Shown here: piece after piece, positions 2,510 to 16,000 of the stretch
Layout: each line of letters begins with the position of its first letter
Position numbering within the stretch: position 1 is the first letter of the stretch
Assembly (NCBI RefSeq): GCF_055900595.2
Contig: NZ_CM148325.1
Reading direction: 5' to 3' (one strand)
Length of the DNA: 64,000 bases
Made by a program: the position numbers and the translations under genes
The notes under the pieces: model-generated
What the model was told of the DNA's origin: nothing
Database searches by the model: none
Seen by the model: the letters and a program-made list of their open reading frames with translations, nothing else

Positions 2510-6025
<3,516 letters not shown>

Positions 6026-9257: not shown

Positions 9258-10132
9258 CAGCTCGCTACATCGCAATTGACTGGGGATCGACCAATCTGCG
9301 CGCCTGGCTTTATCAGGGCGACCACTGCCTGGACAGCAGGCAATCAGAAGCAGGCGTTACGCGTCTGAACGGAAAATCTCCGGCTGCGGTGTTAGCAGAA
9401 GTGACGACCGACTGGCGTGAAGAGAATACGCCAGTGGTGATGGCAGGAATGGTCGGCAGCAATGTCGGCTGGAAAGTTGCGCCGTATTTATCTGTTCCTG
9501 CCCGTTTTTCATCTATTGGCGAACAATTAACGTCTGTTGGCGACAATATCTGGATTATTCCCGGATTATGCGTTTCTCATGATGATAACCACAATGTGAT
9601 GCGCGGCGAAGAAACACAATTGATCGGCGCGCGTACTTTGGCTCCTTCCTCTCTTTATGTCATGCCCGGTACGCATTGCAAATGGGTGCAGGCCGATAGC
9701 CAGCAAATCAACGATTTTCGCACCGTAATGACCGGTGAGTTACATCATTTACTGTTAAATCACTCATTGATTGGCGCAGGTTTACCGCGGCAGGAAAACT
9801 CTGCCGATGCCTTCGCGGCTGGCCTTGAGCGCGGCCTTAATGCGCCCGCAATATTGCCGCAGCTTTTTGAAGTTCGTGCCTCGCATGTGCTAGGAACACT
9901 TCCCCGTGTACAGGTCAGCGAATTTCTCTCTGGTTTGTTGATTGGCGCAGAGGTCGCCAGTATGCGCGACTACGTGGCCCATCAACACGCCATCACCCTT
10001 GTCGCCGGAACATCGCTGACTGCACGCTACCAGCAAGCCTTTCAGGCGATGGGTTGCGAGGTGACGGCGGTGGCGGGCGACACGGCATTTCAGGCTGGTA
10101 TAAGGAGCATCGCTCATGCAGTGGCAAACTAA
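9254..10132 (+). CDS. dgoK: 2-dehydro-3-deoxygalactonokinase
   Basis: 292-aa ORF MTARYIAIDWGSTNLRAWLYQ...; overlaps dgoR stop by 4 nt (translational coupling). Confidence 0.93.
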   Translation: MTARYIAIDWGSTNLRAWLYQGDHCLDSRQSEAGVTRLNGKSPAAVLAEVTTDWREENTPVVMAGMVGSNVGWKVAPYLSVPARFSSIGEQLTSVGDNIWIIPGLCVSHDDNHNVMRGEETQLIGARTLAPSSLYVMPGTHCKWVQADSQQINDFRTVMTGELHHLLLNHSLIGAGLPRQENSADAFAAGLERGLNAPAILPQLFEVRASHVLGTLPRVQVSEFLSGLLIGAEVASMRDYVAHQHAITLVAGTSLTARYQQAFQAMGCEVTAVAGDTAFQAGIRSIAHAVAN

Positions 10133-10733
10133 ACTCCCGCTGATCGCCATTTTGCGCGGCATTACGCCCGACGAGGCGCTGGCGCATGTTGGCGCGGTGA
10201 TTGACGCTGGGTTCGACGCGGTAGAAATCCCGCTGAACTCTCCACTATGGGAACAAAGCATTCCCGCCATCGTTGATGCGTATGGCGATAAAGCGTTGAT
10301 TGGCGCAGGTACGGTACTGAAACCTGAACAGGTCGATGCGCTCGCCAGGATGGGCTGTCAGCTCATCGTTACGCCCAATATCCATAGTGAAGTGATCCGC
10401 CGCGCGGTGGGCTATGGCATGACCGTTTGCCCCGGCTGCGCGACGGCGACTGAAGCCTTTACCGCGATCGACGCGGGCGCTCAGGCGCTGAAAATATTCC
10501 CGTCATCGGCTTTTGGGCCGCAATACATCAAAGCGTTAAAAGCGGTATTACCGCAGGACATCCCGGTCTTTGCCGTAGGCGGTGTGACGCCAGAAAACCT
10601 GGCGCAGTGGATAGACGCAGGTTGTGCAGGGGCGGGCTTAGGCAGCGATCTCTATCGCGCCGGGCAGTCCGTAGAACGCACCGCGCAGCAGGCAGCAGCA
10701 TTTGTTAAGGCGTATCGAGAGGCAGTGCAATGA
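10116..10733 (+). CDS. dgoA: 2-dehydro-3-deoxy-6-phosphogalactonate aldolase
   Basis: 205-aa [24 protein letters not shown]... (KDPG-aldolase fold signature), overlapping dgoK end. Confidence 0.93.
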
Positions 10734-11878
10734 AAATCACCAACATTACTACGTATCGTTTACCTCCCCGCTGGATGTTCCTGAAAATTGAAACTGATGA
10801 AGGCGTGGTCGGTTGGGGCGAGCCCGTGATCGAAGGCCGCGCCCGCACGGTGGAAGCGGCAGTTCACGAGCTGGGTGACTATTTGATTGGTCAGGCTCCA
10901 TCGCGCATCAATGACTTATGGCAAGTGATGTATCGCGCCGGATTTTATCGTGGCGGTCCGATTCTGATGAGCGCCATCGCCGGGATCGACCAGGCGTTAT
11001 GGGATATCAAAGGTAAAGTGCTGAATGCGCCGGTCTGGCAATTGATGGGTGGCCTGGTTCGCGACAAAATTAAAGCCTACAGTTGGGTCGGTGGCGATCG
11101 TCCGGCGGATGTTATCGACGGCATTAAAACGCTACGCGAAATCGGCTTCGATACCTTCAAACTGAACGGTTGTGAAGAGCTGGGATTGATTGATAACTCC
11201 CGCGCGGTAGATGCGGCGGTCAACACCGTGGCACAAATTCGTGAAGCTTTTGGCAATCAGATTGAGTTTGGTCTTGATTTCCACGGTCGCGTCAGCGCGC
11301 CGATGGCGAAAGTGCTGATTAAAGAACTGGAACCGTATCGCCCTCTGTTTATTGAAGAGCCGGTGCTGGCGGAACAAGCCGAATACTACCCGAAACTGGC
11401 GGCACAAACGCATATTCCACTGGCGGCGGGTGAGCGCATGTTCTCACGCTTCGATTTTAAACGCGTGCTGGAAGCTGGCGGTATTTCGATTCTGCAACCG
11501 GATCTCTCCCACGCAGGCGGTATTACCGAATGCTACAAAATTGCCGGAATGGCGGAAGCCTATGACGTGACCCTTGCGCCGCACTGTCCGCTCGGCCCGA
11601 TTGCACTGGCGGCTTGCCTGCATATCGACTTTGTTTCCTATAACGCGGTACTTCAGGAACAAAGTATGGGCATTCATTACAACAAAGGCGCGGAGTTACT
11701 CGACTTTGTGAAAAATAAAGAAGACTTCAGCATGGTCGGCGGCTTCTTTAAACCGTTAATGAAACCGGGCTTAGGCGTGGAAATCGACGAAGCCAAAGTC
11801 ATTGAGTTCAGTAAAAATGCCCCGGACTGGCGTAATCCGCTCTGGCGTCATGAAGATAACAGCGTAGCAGAGTGGTAA
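10730..11878 (+). CDS. dgoD: D-galactonate dehydratase (enolase superfamily)
   Basis: 382-aa [35 protein letters not shown]...; overlaps dgoA stop by 4 nt. Confidence 0.95.
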
Positions 11879-11997
11879 TTCCTGCCACGTAAGCCCCTCA
11901 TCGGGCACTAAAACAGCAATACAAAAATATAACCCTCTGTACATTACAGGGCATGGTGAGCGGCTTCGCTATGCCCAAAATCTGGAGAAAGCTCGCT

Positions 11998-13290
11998 ATG
12001 GATATTCCCGTTAATGCAGCAAAACCGGGGCGTCGGCGTTATCTGACGCTGGTGATGATCTTTATTACGGTGGTCATTTGTTATGTTGACCGCGCTAACC
12101 TGGCCGTGGCTTCCGCCCATATTCAGGAAGAGTTCGGCATTACCAAAGCGGAAATGGGCTATGTATTTTCGGCCTTCGCCTGGCTATATACCTTATGCCA
12201 GATCCCCGGCGGTTGGTTTTTAGATCGCGTAGGTTCTCGCGTGACTTATTTTATTGCGATATTTGGCTGGTCAGTGGCGACGTTATTCCAGGGCTTTGCC
12301 ACGGGCTTAATGTCATTAATTGGTCTGCGCGCGATAACCGGTATTTTCGAAGCGCCCGCGTTCCCGACCAATAACCGGATGGTGACCAGCTGGTTCCCGG
12401 AACATGAACGCGCTTCCGCCGTGGGTTTTTATACGTCTGGTCAGTTTGTCGGTCTGGCGTTTCTGACTCCGCTGCTGATCTGGATTCAGGAAATGTTGAG
12501 CTGGCACTGGGTGTTCATTGTCACCGGCGGTATCGGCATTATCTGGTCGCTGATTTGGTTTAAGGTTTATCAGCCGCCGCGCCTGACCAAAGGCATTAGC
12601 AAAGCTGAACTGGATTACATTCGTGACGGCGGCGGTCTGGTGGATGGCGATGCGCCAGTGAAAAAAGAGTCGCGTCAGCCGCTAACAGCCAAAGACTGGA
12701 AACTGGTGTTCCATCGTAAACTGATCGGCGTCTATCTTGGGCAATTTGCGGTGGCTTCTACACTGTGGTTCTTCTTAACCTGGTTCCCGAACTATTTAAC
12801 CCAGGAAAAAGGAATCACAGCGCTGAAAGCGGGCTTTATGACCACGGTGCCATTCCTTGCGGCGTTTGTTGGCGTCCTGCTCTCAGGCTGGGTCGCGGAT
12901 CTGCTGGTACGTAAGGGCTTTTCACTGGGCTTTGCGCGTAAAACGCCGATTATCTGCGGTTTGCTGATCTCCACCTGCATTATGGGCGCTAACTACACCA
13001 ACGATCCGATGATGATTATGTGCCTGATGGCGCTGGCATTCTTCGGCAACGGTTTTGCTTCGATTACCTGGTCGTTAGTCTCTTCTCTGGCACCGATGCG
13101 GCTGATTGGTTTAACCGGCGGCGTGTTTAACTTCGCCGGTGGTCTGGGCGGCATCACCGTTCCGCTGGTGGTGGGGTACCTGGCGCAGGGTTACGGTTTC
13201 GCGCCTGCACTGGTTTATATCTCCGCCGTCGCGTTGATTGGCGCGCTCTCTTACATCCTGCTGGTGGGCGATGTGAAGCGCGTTGGATAA
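11998..13290 (+). CDS. dgoT: D-galactonate:H+ symporter (MFS)
   Basis: ORF with start taken at [35 protein letters not shown] (430 aa); ORF track extends 45 nt upstream to 11953. Confidence 0.9.
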
Positions 13291-14351
13291 TCTTTAAACT
13301 GTGGAATATGCGCCACACCACTGCGCATAATCCATTTTCTTAAAGCCGGTGCGGTCAGGCATCGGCTTTTTACTATTTTGCCGAAGAGTTTTAAACGCAG
13401 TTTGCGGGTGGCGCGCCAGTAAGCGGCGTTGCTCTTCTCCGGCTGCTTCAGTAACACCGAACGCAGAATCTCTGCACTATCCAGCGCATAGCTAATCCCC
13501 TCCAGCGAGCTGGCGCTGATAAATCCCGCCGCTTCACCAATCAGAAAGGCATTGTCCTTACCGCAGACAAAATCCTGCCAGCGTGAGGGAAACAGCACCG
13601 TGCATTTTTCGCTTTTTACCGCCTTACCAAACTGGAACTGAAAGGCGCTCATTTTCTCTTTTAGCGCCGTGAAGCGCGCCTGGCCGTCTTTCATTGGATA
13701 GGCACCGCCAAAGATAAAATAACCGTCTTTGCTGATACTCCATGAATAACAGTCAGTTATCGCATTATCAAAGATGCAGGAGTAGAACGGCACCGGATGT
13801 TTCTCTGCGAACCACTGCTGGATAGCGACATATTTACGAATTTGATGGTTCGGGTAGAGATGTCGCCGCACCATCGAGTTGGCACCATCGGAACCGACCA
13901 GATAGCGGGCGGTAATGTGTTGCTCCCAGCCGTCTGCGCGAAAAATGACATGCCATTTATCATCCTCGCGCCAGATTTTCCGGCACAGGCTGTCGTGGTA
14001 AACCTCAACGCTGGTGGGAATGAGCGATTTCATCCATAAGTCGAAAGCATGGCGATTAATATTGATATAGCTTCGCTGGTAGTTACGTGTAAGCGATGCG
14101 GCTACGTCGACGGTTTTGACGCTGAAAATCTGCGGATTGGCGATCACATCGACAGGCAGCGTCAGTCCATCGCGAATAAAAGATCGCTGCGCGTCCGGTG
14201 CCAGCAGACCGCCACAAGGCTTGCTGAAACCTTCAGTACCATGCTGGTGCTTTTTATCCAGCGCGATCACCTGCATTTTGCTGGCTAACTTTCGCGCCAA
14301 CGCCGAACCTGCCGGGCCGAGGCCAATAATCGCCACGTCGAAATGTTCCAT
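13251..14351 (-). CDS. cbrA: FAD-dependent oxidoreductase CbrA (YidS)
   Basis: Minus-strand [26 protein letters not shown] (GxGxxG FAD-binding motif at N-terminus); start codon uncertain (ATG at 14351 or 14369; alternative GTG at 14372). 3' end overlaps dgoT by 40 nt (convergent). Confidence 0.82.
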
Positions 14352-14415
14352 CTTTTCACTCACATTCATCACGATGGCAAAAGACTATTGTCTGAAAGTG
14401 AAGTCCTTGTGAAGT

Positions 14416-15666
14416 ATGATGGCGGGAACCGTTTTGTATCAGGACCGCGCCATGAAACAGATAACCTTTGCTCCCCGTAATCACCTGCTCACCAATACCA
14501 ATACCTGGACGCCCGACAGCCAGTGGCTGGTATTTGACGTGCGTCCTTCTGGGGCGTCGTTTACCGGTGAGACCATTGAGCGCGTGAATATCCATACCGG
14601 CGAGGTCGAGGTTATCTACCGTGCGTCACAGGGCGCACACGTCGGCGTGGTGACCGTTCATCCGAAGTCAGAGAAATATGTCTTTATTCACGGCCCTGAA
14701 AATCCTGATGAAACATGGCATTACGACTTCCATCATCGACGCGGCGTGATTGCTGAAAGCGGCAAGGTGAGCAATCTCGATGCAATGGATATTACCGCGC
14801 CGTATACGCCAGGAGCGCTGCGTGGCGGCAGCCATGTACATGTCTTTAGCCCGAACGGTGAAATGGTGAGCTTTACCTATAACGACCATGTAATGCATGA
14901 ACGCGATCCGGCGCTGGATTTGCGCAACGTCGGTGTTGCGGTACCGTTTGGCCCGGTCAACGTACAAAAGCAGCATCCGCGTGAATACAGCGGCAGCCAC
15001 TGGTGCGTGTTGGTGAGTAACACCACGCCCACGCCGCAGCCTGGCAGTGATGAAATCAATCGTGCTTATGAAGAAGGATGGGTAGGAAACCACGCGCTGG
15101 CGTTTATTGGCGACACATTTTCGCCAAAGGGCGAGAAAGTGCCGGAGCTGTTTATCGTTGAGTTACCGCAAGATGAAGCTGGCTGGAAAGCGGCAGGTGA
15201 TGTGCCGTTAAGTGGAACGGAAACAACCCTGCCTGCGCCACCGCGTGGCGTCGTGCAGCGACGTTTAACCTTTACCCATCAGCGGGCTTATCCGGGGTTA
15301 GTCAACGTTCCGCGCCACTGGGTGCGCTGTAATCCGCAGGGTACGCAAATCGCGTTTTTAATGCGTGATGATAACGGCATTGTGCAATTGTGGCTTATCT
15401 CACCACAGGGCGGCGAGCCGCGCCAGTTAACCCATAACAAAACGGATATTCAGTCTGCATTTAACTGGCATCCGTCAGGAGAATGGTTGGGCTTTGTGCT
15501 GGATAATCGGATTGCTTGCGCCCATGCGCAAAGCGGCGAGGTTGAGTATTTAACCGAAAACCACGCCAATCCACCTTCTGCGGACGCCGTGGTCTTCTCG
15601 CCGGATGGTCGATGGCTGGCGTGGATGGAAGGCGGCCAGCTGTGGATCACCGAAACTGATCGCTAA
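14416..15666 (+). CDS. yidR: Conserved protein YidR (DUF3748)
   Basis: 416-aa ORF ...ITFAPRNHLLTNTNTWTPDSQWLVFDVRP...; start ambiguous among ATG 14416, 14419 and 14452 (the last has the best RBS, agga). Confidence 0.85.
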   Translation: MMAGTVLYQDRAMKQITFAPRNHLLTNTNTWTPDSQWLVFDVRPSGASFTGETIERVNIHTGEVEVIYRASQGAHVGVVTVHPKSEKYVFIHGPENPDETWHYDFHHRRGVIAESGKVSNLDAMDITAPYTPGALRGGSHVHVFSPNGEMVSFTYNDHVMHERDPALDLRNVGVAVPFGPVNVQKQHPREYSGSHWCVLVSNTTPTPQPGSDEINRAYEEGWVGNHALAFIGDTFSPKGEKVPELFIVELPQDEAGWKAAGDVPLSGTETTLPAPPRGVVQRRLTFTHQRAYPGLVNVPRHWVRCNPQGTQIAFLMRDDNGIVQLWLISPQGGEPRQLTHNKTDIQSAFNWHPSGEWLGFVLDNRIACAHAQSGEVEYLTENHANPPSADAVVFSPDGRWLAWMEGGQLWITETDR

Positions 15667-15667
15667 A

Positions 15668-16000
15668 TCAGTTATCAGGCATTCTGGCGGGTGGAATAAC
15701 CGCATTGGTGGCTTGCGCGTTGGCTTCGCTTTTTTCAACGCGTGAGCGCACCGAGCTGTCTTTGCGGAATACATCCCACGGCAGTAAAAGCGTATCCATC
15801 ACAGCGGTAAACGGCATATCGAGAATCGCTAGCGACTTAGTGCCCCAGTTGGTTTCATCGTCGCCAATCATGGTGGCGCTGGCGCGGGTGCCGGGATATG
15901 TTCCTTCTTTCCCCCCGGTATGGGACATCACGCTGGAGCATCCTCCGAGTAATGTCATTCCGCTGCATATCATGAACGCTAACAACACATTTCTTATCAT
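15668..16000 (-). CDS. yidQ: Small lipoprotein YidQ (DUF1375)
   Basis: Internal ATG at 16000 gives MIRNVLLAFMICSGMTLLGGC (lipobox LGGC), 110 aa; ORF track shows a longer frame to 16075. Confidence 0.85.
   Translation of the reverse strand: MIRNVLLAFMICSGMTLLGGCSSVMSHTGGKEGTYPGTRASATMIGDDETNWGTKSLAILDMPFTAVMDTLLLPWDVFRKDSSVRSRVEKSEANAQATNAVIPPARMPDN

Follow-up and report, generated by a model that had tools for sequence, protein, structure and literature searches.

The analysed window is a stretch of 64,000 nucleotides of an Escherichia coli chromosome which carries the genes in the order dgoR-dgoK-dgoA-dgoD-dgoT, cbrA, yidR, yidQ and ibpAB. A 2.6-kb query around the junction of dgoT and cbrA found matches in 5,422 of the 5,426 complete E. 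coli genomes, and strain Z0117EC0005 was 100% identical to it. The junction comprises the following features:

11953..13290, plus strand: dgoT, D-galactonate:H+ symporter, last gene of dgoRKADT (open reading frame, annotation, TIGR00893, MFS_1)
13251..14351, minus strand: cbrA, long allele, 366 aa, colicin M resistance lipid reductase (FAD, geranylgeranyl-reductase-like; open reading frame, annotation, NF008519)
13251..13290, unstranded: convergent coding overlap of 40 nt, read directly from the sequence

The 3' end of dgoT reads ...GTG AAG CGC GTT GGA TAA, with the stop codon TAA at 13288-13290. The stop codon of cbrA, TAA at 13251-13253 on the minus strand, lies opposite the DgoT Ser-Tyr codons TCT TAC. 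The 40-nt convergent overlap reported in the earlier note is exact (13251-13290), and RefSeq/PGAP annotates the same overlap in Z0117EC0005, where dgoT ends at locus position 4391 and cbrA (366 aa) occupies 4352-5452. The two frames overlap in phase 123:213 (notation after PMC2174442), that is, the third codon positions of dgoT and cbrA face each other.

Both dgoT and cbrA are genuine protein-coding genes on opposite strands. CbrA matched the equivalog model NF008519 with 681 bits (cut-off 303) over residues 1-354, and DgoT matched TIGR00893, the D-galactonate transporter subfamily, with 494 bits (cut-off 395). These matches and the RefSeq annotations bear out that the overlap joins the 3' ends of two genuine coding genes. 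The program-made list of open reading frames started cbrA at GTG 14372 (373 aa), the annotation at ATG 14351; NF008519 aligns from residue 1 of the ATG 14351 version. For dgoT, PGAP places the start at ATG 11953 (445 aa), and the K-12 protein (b3691, 430 aa) starts 15 codons later, at 11998 (MDIPVN). The alignment of DgoT with the TIGR00893 model begins only at residue 38.

A silent base in dgoT and the length of CbrA

The difference in length between the CbrA proteins of E. coli strains maps to one base and to the codons that follow it in cbrA:

13287, unstranded: polymorphic base setting CbrA length (junction alignment and 34-mer haplotype counts)
13254..13289, minus strand: 12-codon C-terminal extension of CbrA, antisense to the C-terminal residues of DgoT

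Base 13287 is an A in the window, where the triplets read GGA (Gly) in dgoT and TAT (Tyr) in cbrA. In K-12 and most E. coli it is a C, which gives GGC (Gly) in dgoT and the stop codon TAG in cbrA. In the junction alignment, dgoT ends with GGC TAA in K-12 and strain 144 versus GGA TAA in the window, and the cbrA triplet is TAG in K-12, strain 144, Escherichia sp. E1V33 and O157 versus TAT in the window, a single C/A difference. The change from C to A is synonymous for dgoT, whose last codon before the stop encodes Gly either way (GGC to GGA). In cbrA it turns TAG into TAT, and CbrA therefore reads 12 codons further, to the TAA at 13251-13253. The short cbrA of K-12 and strain 144 encodes 354 aa; its TAG lies 36 nt earlier and overlaps the dgoT stop by 4 nt.

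In the usual arrangement, the stop codon TAA of dgoT and the stop codon of cbrA share four nucleotides (C/T-T-A-A), and dgoT and cbrA have a third codon position in common, that of the final dgoT Gly codon (GGN, four-fold degenerate) and of the cbrA stop. GGC and GGT provide a cbrA stop (TAG and TAA, respectively) and a protein of 354 aa, and GGA and GGG a tyrosine codon (TAT and TAC). With A at 13287, the cbrA frame runs antisense through the last 12 codons of dgoT, which yields the CbrA of 366 aa together with the 40-nt overlap. Since the third codon positions face each other, the degenerate Gly codon of dgoT acts as the switch for the length of CbrA.

Frequency of the alleles in E. coli

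The site was typed in the 5,426 complete E. coli genomes with 34-mers in which every 28-base seed word covers 13287. The haplotypes, given as the bases at 13278 and 13287, were distributed as follows:

G, A (window haplotype; includes Nissle 1917, NU14 and ATCC 11775): 1,305 genomes
A, A: 151 genomes
G, C: 3,443 genomes
A, C: 133 genomes
O157-type variant with C at 13287: 307 genomes
GGT variant (T at 13287): 1 genome

The long allele (A) thus amounts to 1,456 (1,305 + 151) of the ~5,340 typed genomes (~27%), and the short allele (C) to 3,883 genomes (3,443 + 133 + 307; ~72% of 5,426). The 40-nt overlap is part of the RefSeq annotation of Nissle 1917, 118UI and Z0117EC0005. Nissle 1917, NU14 and others among the carriers of the long allele belong to phylogroup B2.

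The earlier note had proposed an alignment with orthologues as a check, and had considered that the true cbrA stop might lie upstream, with the frame in this strain extended by a mutation. The alignment indeed places the stop of the reference allele (K-12) 36 nt upstream and traces the extension to one base. The extension is, however, no strain lesion, the long form being common in complete E. coli genomes (~27%) and present in other species.

The haplotypes which carry the long allele differ by ~4.5% across cbrA, and A at 13287 occurs together with either base at 13278, a distance of 9 nt. Because the allele is found on haplotypes so diverged and with both neighboring states, the sequence comparison points to its spread by recurrence or recombination.

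The GGG variant 34-mer matched only a few transporter copies, mostly on plasmids. In these few E. coli genomes, large plasmids (e.g. NZ_AP022088.1 and NZ_CP128940.1) carry an MFS transporter gene that resembles dgoT and has an almost identical 3' end (GGG variant).

The junction in other species

In a scan that covered a single genome for each species, 39 enterobacterial cbrA loci were found. Among the loci with a full dgoT convergent to cbrA, the commonest state across genera was the 4-nt overlap: the interlock TTAA/TTAG was present at nine loci of Citrobacter, Enterobacter and Phytobacter, in which the last Gly codon of dgoT is GGT or GGC. The 40-nt overlap with the same tail was found in E. 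whittamii (GGG, TAC) and Pseudocitrobacter vendiensis (GGA, TAT). E. albertii (GGA) also encodes a CbrA of 366 aa with a 40-nt overlap, Escherichia sp. E1V33 a CbrA of 354 aa, and in Buttiauxella a spacer of 62 nt separates dgoT from cbrA. All four Gly codons occur across the species, each with the predicted effect on cbrA. In many genera of the 39-locus scan cbrA has no adjacent dgoT. The comparison does not fix the ancestral state in Escherichia, with E. albertii and E. whittamii carrying the long form, E1V33 the short form and most outgroup genera the 4-nt overlap.

Most of dgoT and the whole of dgoRKAD are missing from E. coli O157:H7, Escherichia sp. E1V33 and E. albertii. A 3' end of dgoT of ~110 nt still abuts cbrA in all three, and the deletion junctions are almost the same, at about 8405/8427 to 13176/13180 of the window (loci L055:3993-4106, L004, L006 and L016). 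The O157-type 34-mer at the dgoT end, present in 307 E. coli genomes, was taken to mark this dgo-deleted allele. Citrobacter sp. MGH106 independently kept the last ~84 nt of dgoT. A function of the retained 3' remnant as cbrA 3' UTR or terminator is one possibility. Two further loci deviate in cbrA itself: in E. coli E69 (L007, CP089930.1) dgoT is absent and the C-terminus of CbrA is replaced by an unrelated tail (...HISQMNCAGHYSESRVLYPK), and in Escherichia sp. MOD1-EC7003 (L047) cbrA is interrupted after ~40 codons and probably represents a pseudogene.

Comparison with known convergent overlaps

Mutation of a stop codon is the accepted and usual origin of convergent overlaps, the modal length of which is 4 nt (Lillo & Krakauer 2007, PMC2174442); earlier work on such overlaps in Mycoplasma is cited therein. 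In E. coli, 58 convergent overlaps were counted, and phase 123:213 is the less common one among those longer than 4 nt, with 18% overall and 22% in E. coli (PMC2174442). The overlap of dgoT and cbrA resembles these cases in several respects: two real genes lie on opposite strands, the 4-nt interlock of the stops exists as the alternative state, and a single base change in one stop leads to read-through to the next antisense stop. The length also fits the geometric expectation. Antisense stops in the cbrA phase of dgoT occur at 0.040 per codon with a median gap of 15 codons, and the probability of meeting no stop in 11 codons is 0.64. An overlap of 40 nt is what chance read-through gives once the upstream stop is lost. 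Nothing essential sets this pair apart from overlaps formed by stop-codon mutation; a particular detail is that one species harbors both cbrA states in large numbers, owing to the position of the switch base at a four-fold degenerate third codon site of dgoT.

Another close counterpart is the pair cbrA (b3690) and dgoT (b3691) of K-12 MG1655, which has the same genes in the same order, convergent and without a spacer, and the same hairpin within cbrA (see below). The K-12 pair differs in carrying TAG at the equivalent of 13287-13289, with a CbrA of 354 aa and an overlap of 4 nt, whereas the window has TAT, 366 aa and 40 nt.

The polymorphism is ordinary, already annotated and of a known kind. 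Very probably, we are dealing with a common and near-neutral stop-codon polymorphism in a convergent pair whose stops are normally interlocked, most likely devoid of functional consequence. It provides a clean illustration of how interlocked convergent stops let a silent change in one gene set the protein length of its neighbor. The gene ends of the K-12 reference are not universal, with about a quarter of the E. coli genomes encoding a CbrA that is 12 residues longer, and length variants of this type should not be flagged as errors or pseudogenes in annotation and pangenome work.

Transcription termination and regulation at the junction

The earlier note had also stated that the overlap leaves no room for terminators and may cause transcriptional interference. 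The statement on terminators is true of intergenic space only, of which there is none, and terminators of convergent overlapping genes must sit in the coding sequence of the partner (PMC2174442). A strong terminator-like hairpin for dgoT is present within cbrA at 13342-13369:

13342..13379, plus strand: candidate intrinsic terminator of the dgo operon, inside cbrA codons (hairpin scan and fold)

The lack of space is not an effect of the 40-nt overlap, the 4-nt allele being equally without intergenic DNA.

The hairpin is G+C-rich, has a stem of 11 bp (13342-13369) followed by TTTTTACTATTTT with a T-run on the dgoT strand, and is located 52 nt past the dgoT stop. On the plus strand its folding energy was -18.4 kcal/mol (z -3.47), with none of 200 shuffled sequences as stable. 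On the minus strand, that of cbrA, an A.C mismatch replaces a G.U pair, which lowers the stability (-13.5), and a U-run is lacking. From its sequence it is the obvious candidate for the terminator of the dgo operon, transcription of which probably ends there, ~50-90 nt inside cbrA. The same hairpin is present in K-12 and hence in both alleles.

As a dgo terminator conserved across genera, the hairpin finds weak support in the comparison. Escherichia, P. vendiensis and Enterobacter ENT03 retain it, one of its pairs varying between G.U, G-C and A-U; Citrobacter species with adjacent dgoT do not. Over the 13 loci with full dgoT, 58.7% of the cells were paired, a value reached by 49 of 500 shuffles. 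The hairpin also persists in dgo-less Escherichia, where the sequence encodes conserved CbrA residues. Covariation support was not obtained across genera, and the hairpin tracks the CbrA peptide, not the adjacency of dgoT.

For cbrA, no intrinsic terminator within dgoT emerged from the scan of the minus strand; folding of 13120-13250 on this strand gave a z of -1.4. Termination of cbrA may be Rho-dependent, which is a guess. The available part of the supplementary tables of an E. coli 3'-end map holds no entry for the 3' ends of dgoT or cbrA (eLife 2021, PMC7815308), and a literature search for a dgoT terminator returned nothing relevant. Among known RNA families, only StyR-143 was hit in 12500-14600, far below threshold (19 bits versus a gathering score of 176).

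The spacer between the divergent genes cbrA and yidR contains a putative regulatory site for cbrA:

14398..14413, minus strand: cre-tag-like direct repeat TTCACaaggacTTCAC (exact cre-tag consensus TTCACnnnnnnTTCAC), by sequence match

A distance of 47 nt separates it from the cbrA ATG downstream, and it is the sole exact match in the 64-kb window. We take it to be tied to the control of cbrA by CreBC. Its presence is consistent with cbrA being CreBC-regulated and controlled independently of dgo.

Transcriptional interference between dgo and cbrA is plausible. It would be independent of the position of the cbrA stop and would apply equally to the K-12 arrangement: because the dgo and cbrA transcripts, provided that both coding sequences are transcribed to their ends, must overlap in both alleles, the 40-nt coding overlap would add nothing to transcriptional cross-talk. 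ExcludonFinder, applied to RNA-seq coverage, lists cbrA-dgoT as one of the 165 convergent excludons that recur in 50% or more of 58 MG1655 transcriptomes (PMC12288877). The pair yidQ-yidR, in the window convergent with a gap of 1 nt (yidR on the plus and yidQ on the minus strand, 15666/15668), is also listed there as an MG1655 convergent excludon (PMC12288877).

The listing of cbrA-dgoT itself raises the alternative of a functional convergent excludon, in which the two transcripts would repress each other through collision of RNA polymerases or cleavage of the duplex by RNase III. Galactonate catabolism, under DgoR, and lipid modification by CbrA, under CreBC, would then be mutually exclusive, and the longer coding overlap could tune this relation. 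The compact layout agrees with such a function: no intergenic space exists, the candidate dgo terminator lies within cbrA, no intrinsic cbrA terminator was found inside dgoT, and the regulatory signals are separate, with the cre-tag for cbrA and the DgoR operon layout for dgo. By definition, however, an excludon requires overlapping transcripts together with reciprocal regulation, and the present analysis covers the sequence. Where coding sequences overlap, the coverage criterion makes an excludon call nearly automatic, and the literature yielded no reciprocal-expression or RNase III results for cbrA-dgoT. Moreover, the 4-nt and 40-nt alleles do not differ in transcript overlap, cbrA is kept in strains that lost the dgo operon, and many genera have cbrA without dgoT alongside. 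On balance we consider a functional excludon unlikely. If cbrA-dgoT truly acted as one, a carbon source of the gut, galactonate, would be linked to bacteriocin resistance.

The C-terminal extension of CbrA

Published work on CbrA presumably used the K-12 allele. CbrA saturates the alpha-isoprene unit of C55-P-linked precursors, which leads to protection from colicin M (review PMC8469651); the published work as summarised in the available text of this review is silent on allele length.

Beyond the conserved ...AHIP (around residue 349), CbrA orthologues carry unrelated tails, the proteins ranging from 353 to 386 aa, and the NF008519 model ends at residue 354, so that the 12-residue extension falls outside it. 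An AlphaFold2 model built on a 40-sequence alignment, of good confidence as a whole (mean pLDDT 83, pTM 0.83), ends its last helix at residue 344 and gives residues 354-366 a pLDDT below 50. A sequence search for a solved structure of CbrA retrieved only a distant flavoprotein (E = 2.6e-4). The end of conservation, the family model, the AlphaFold2 model and the chance-like length of the read-through together suggest that the 12 extra residues are a disordered appendage with little or no effect.

E. coli shares one and the same tail sequence with E. albertii, E. whittamii and P. vendiensis. Its conservation was examined as a sign of function and proved uninformative. In phase 123:213 the silent sites coincide in both frames, therefore the constraint on DgoT and a conservation of the tail cannot be separated, and the former alone explains the identical tails.

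A functional tail, contributing to membrane association, stability or activity of CbrA and with both lengths selected in different lineages, appears highly improbable to us. The high frequency of both alleles (27% and 72%) and the occurrence of the long one in several species and on diverged haplotypes would suit such a selection, but a recurrent neutral change is expected at a switch that is a four-fold degenerate site. The tail is moreover outside the family model and predicted to be disordered, the tails of other genera are unrelated in sequence and length, and its own sequence is dictated by the conserved C-terminus of DgoT on the other strand. There is equally little reason to expect the combination of a functional length polymorphism with an active excludon by which the use of D-galactonate would be tied to colicin M resistance. 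If it were true, the extension could alter the activity of CbrA or the protection of the antisense-paired 3' end by ribosomes, and lineages would differ in colicin M sensitivity during growth on galactonate.

Finally, an artefact of sequencing or annotation, with the stop really present or cbrA a pseudogene, has a negligible probability: the difference from K-12 is the sole point in its favor, but the same base is shared by 1,456 complete genomes, all independent, and by three further species, which rules out a private mutation or sequencing error, and the cbrA open reading frame is intact and full-length with respect to NF008519.

Divergence of the surrounding region

Over the dgo-cbrA-yidR stretch (9500-15750), the window differs by 3-6% from K-12, strain 144 and Nissle 1917, and only 11 of the 5,426 genomes reach at least 99% identity over 11900-14500. 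In CbrA, a Leu-to-Phe replacement at residue 352 (QFKD versus QLKD) is specific to the window. Escherichia genomes differ to an unusual degree in the segment 7400-8630, which comprises yidX and its spacer to dgoR: here the window shares 74.5% identity with O157:H7, 81.7% with K-12, 76% with Escherichia sp. E1V33 and 95% with E. albertii. This pattern of sequence identity suggests two deep haplotypes common to several species.
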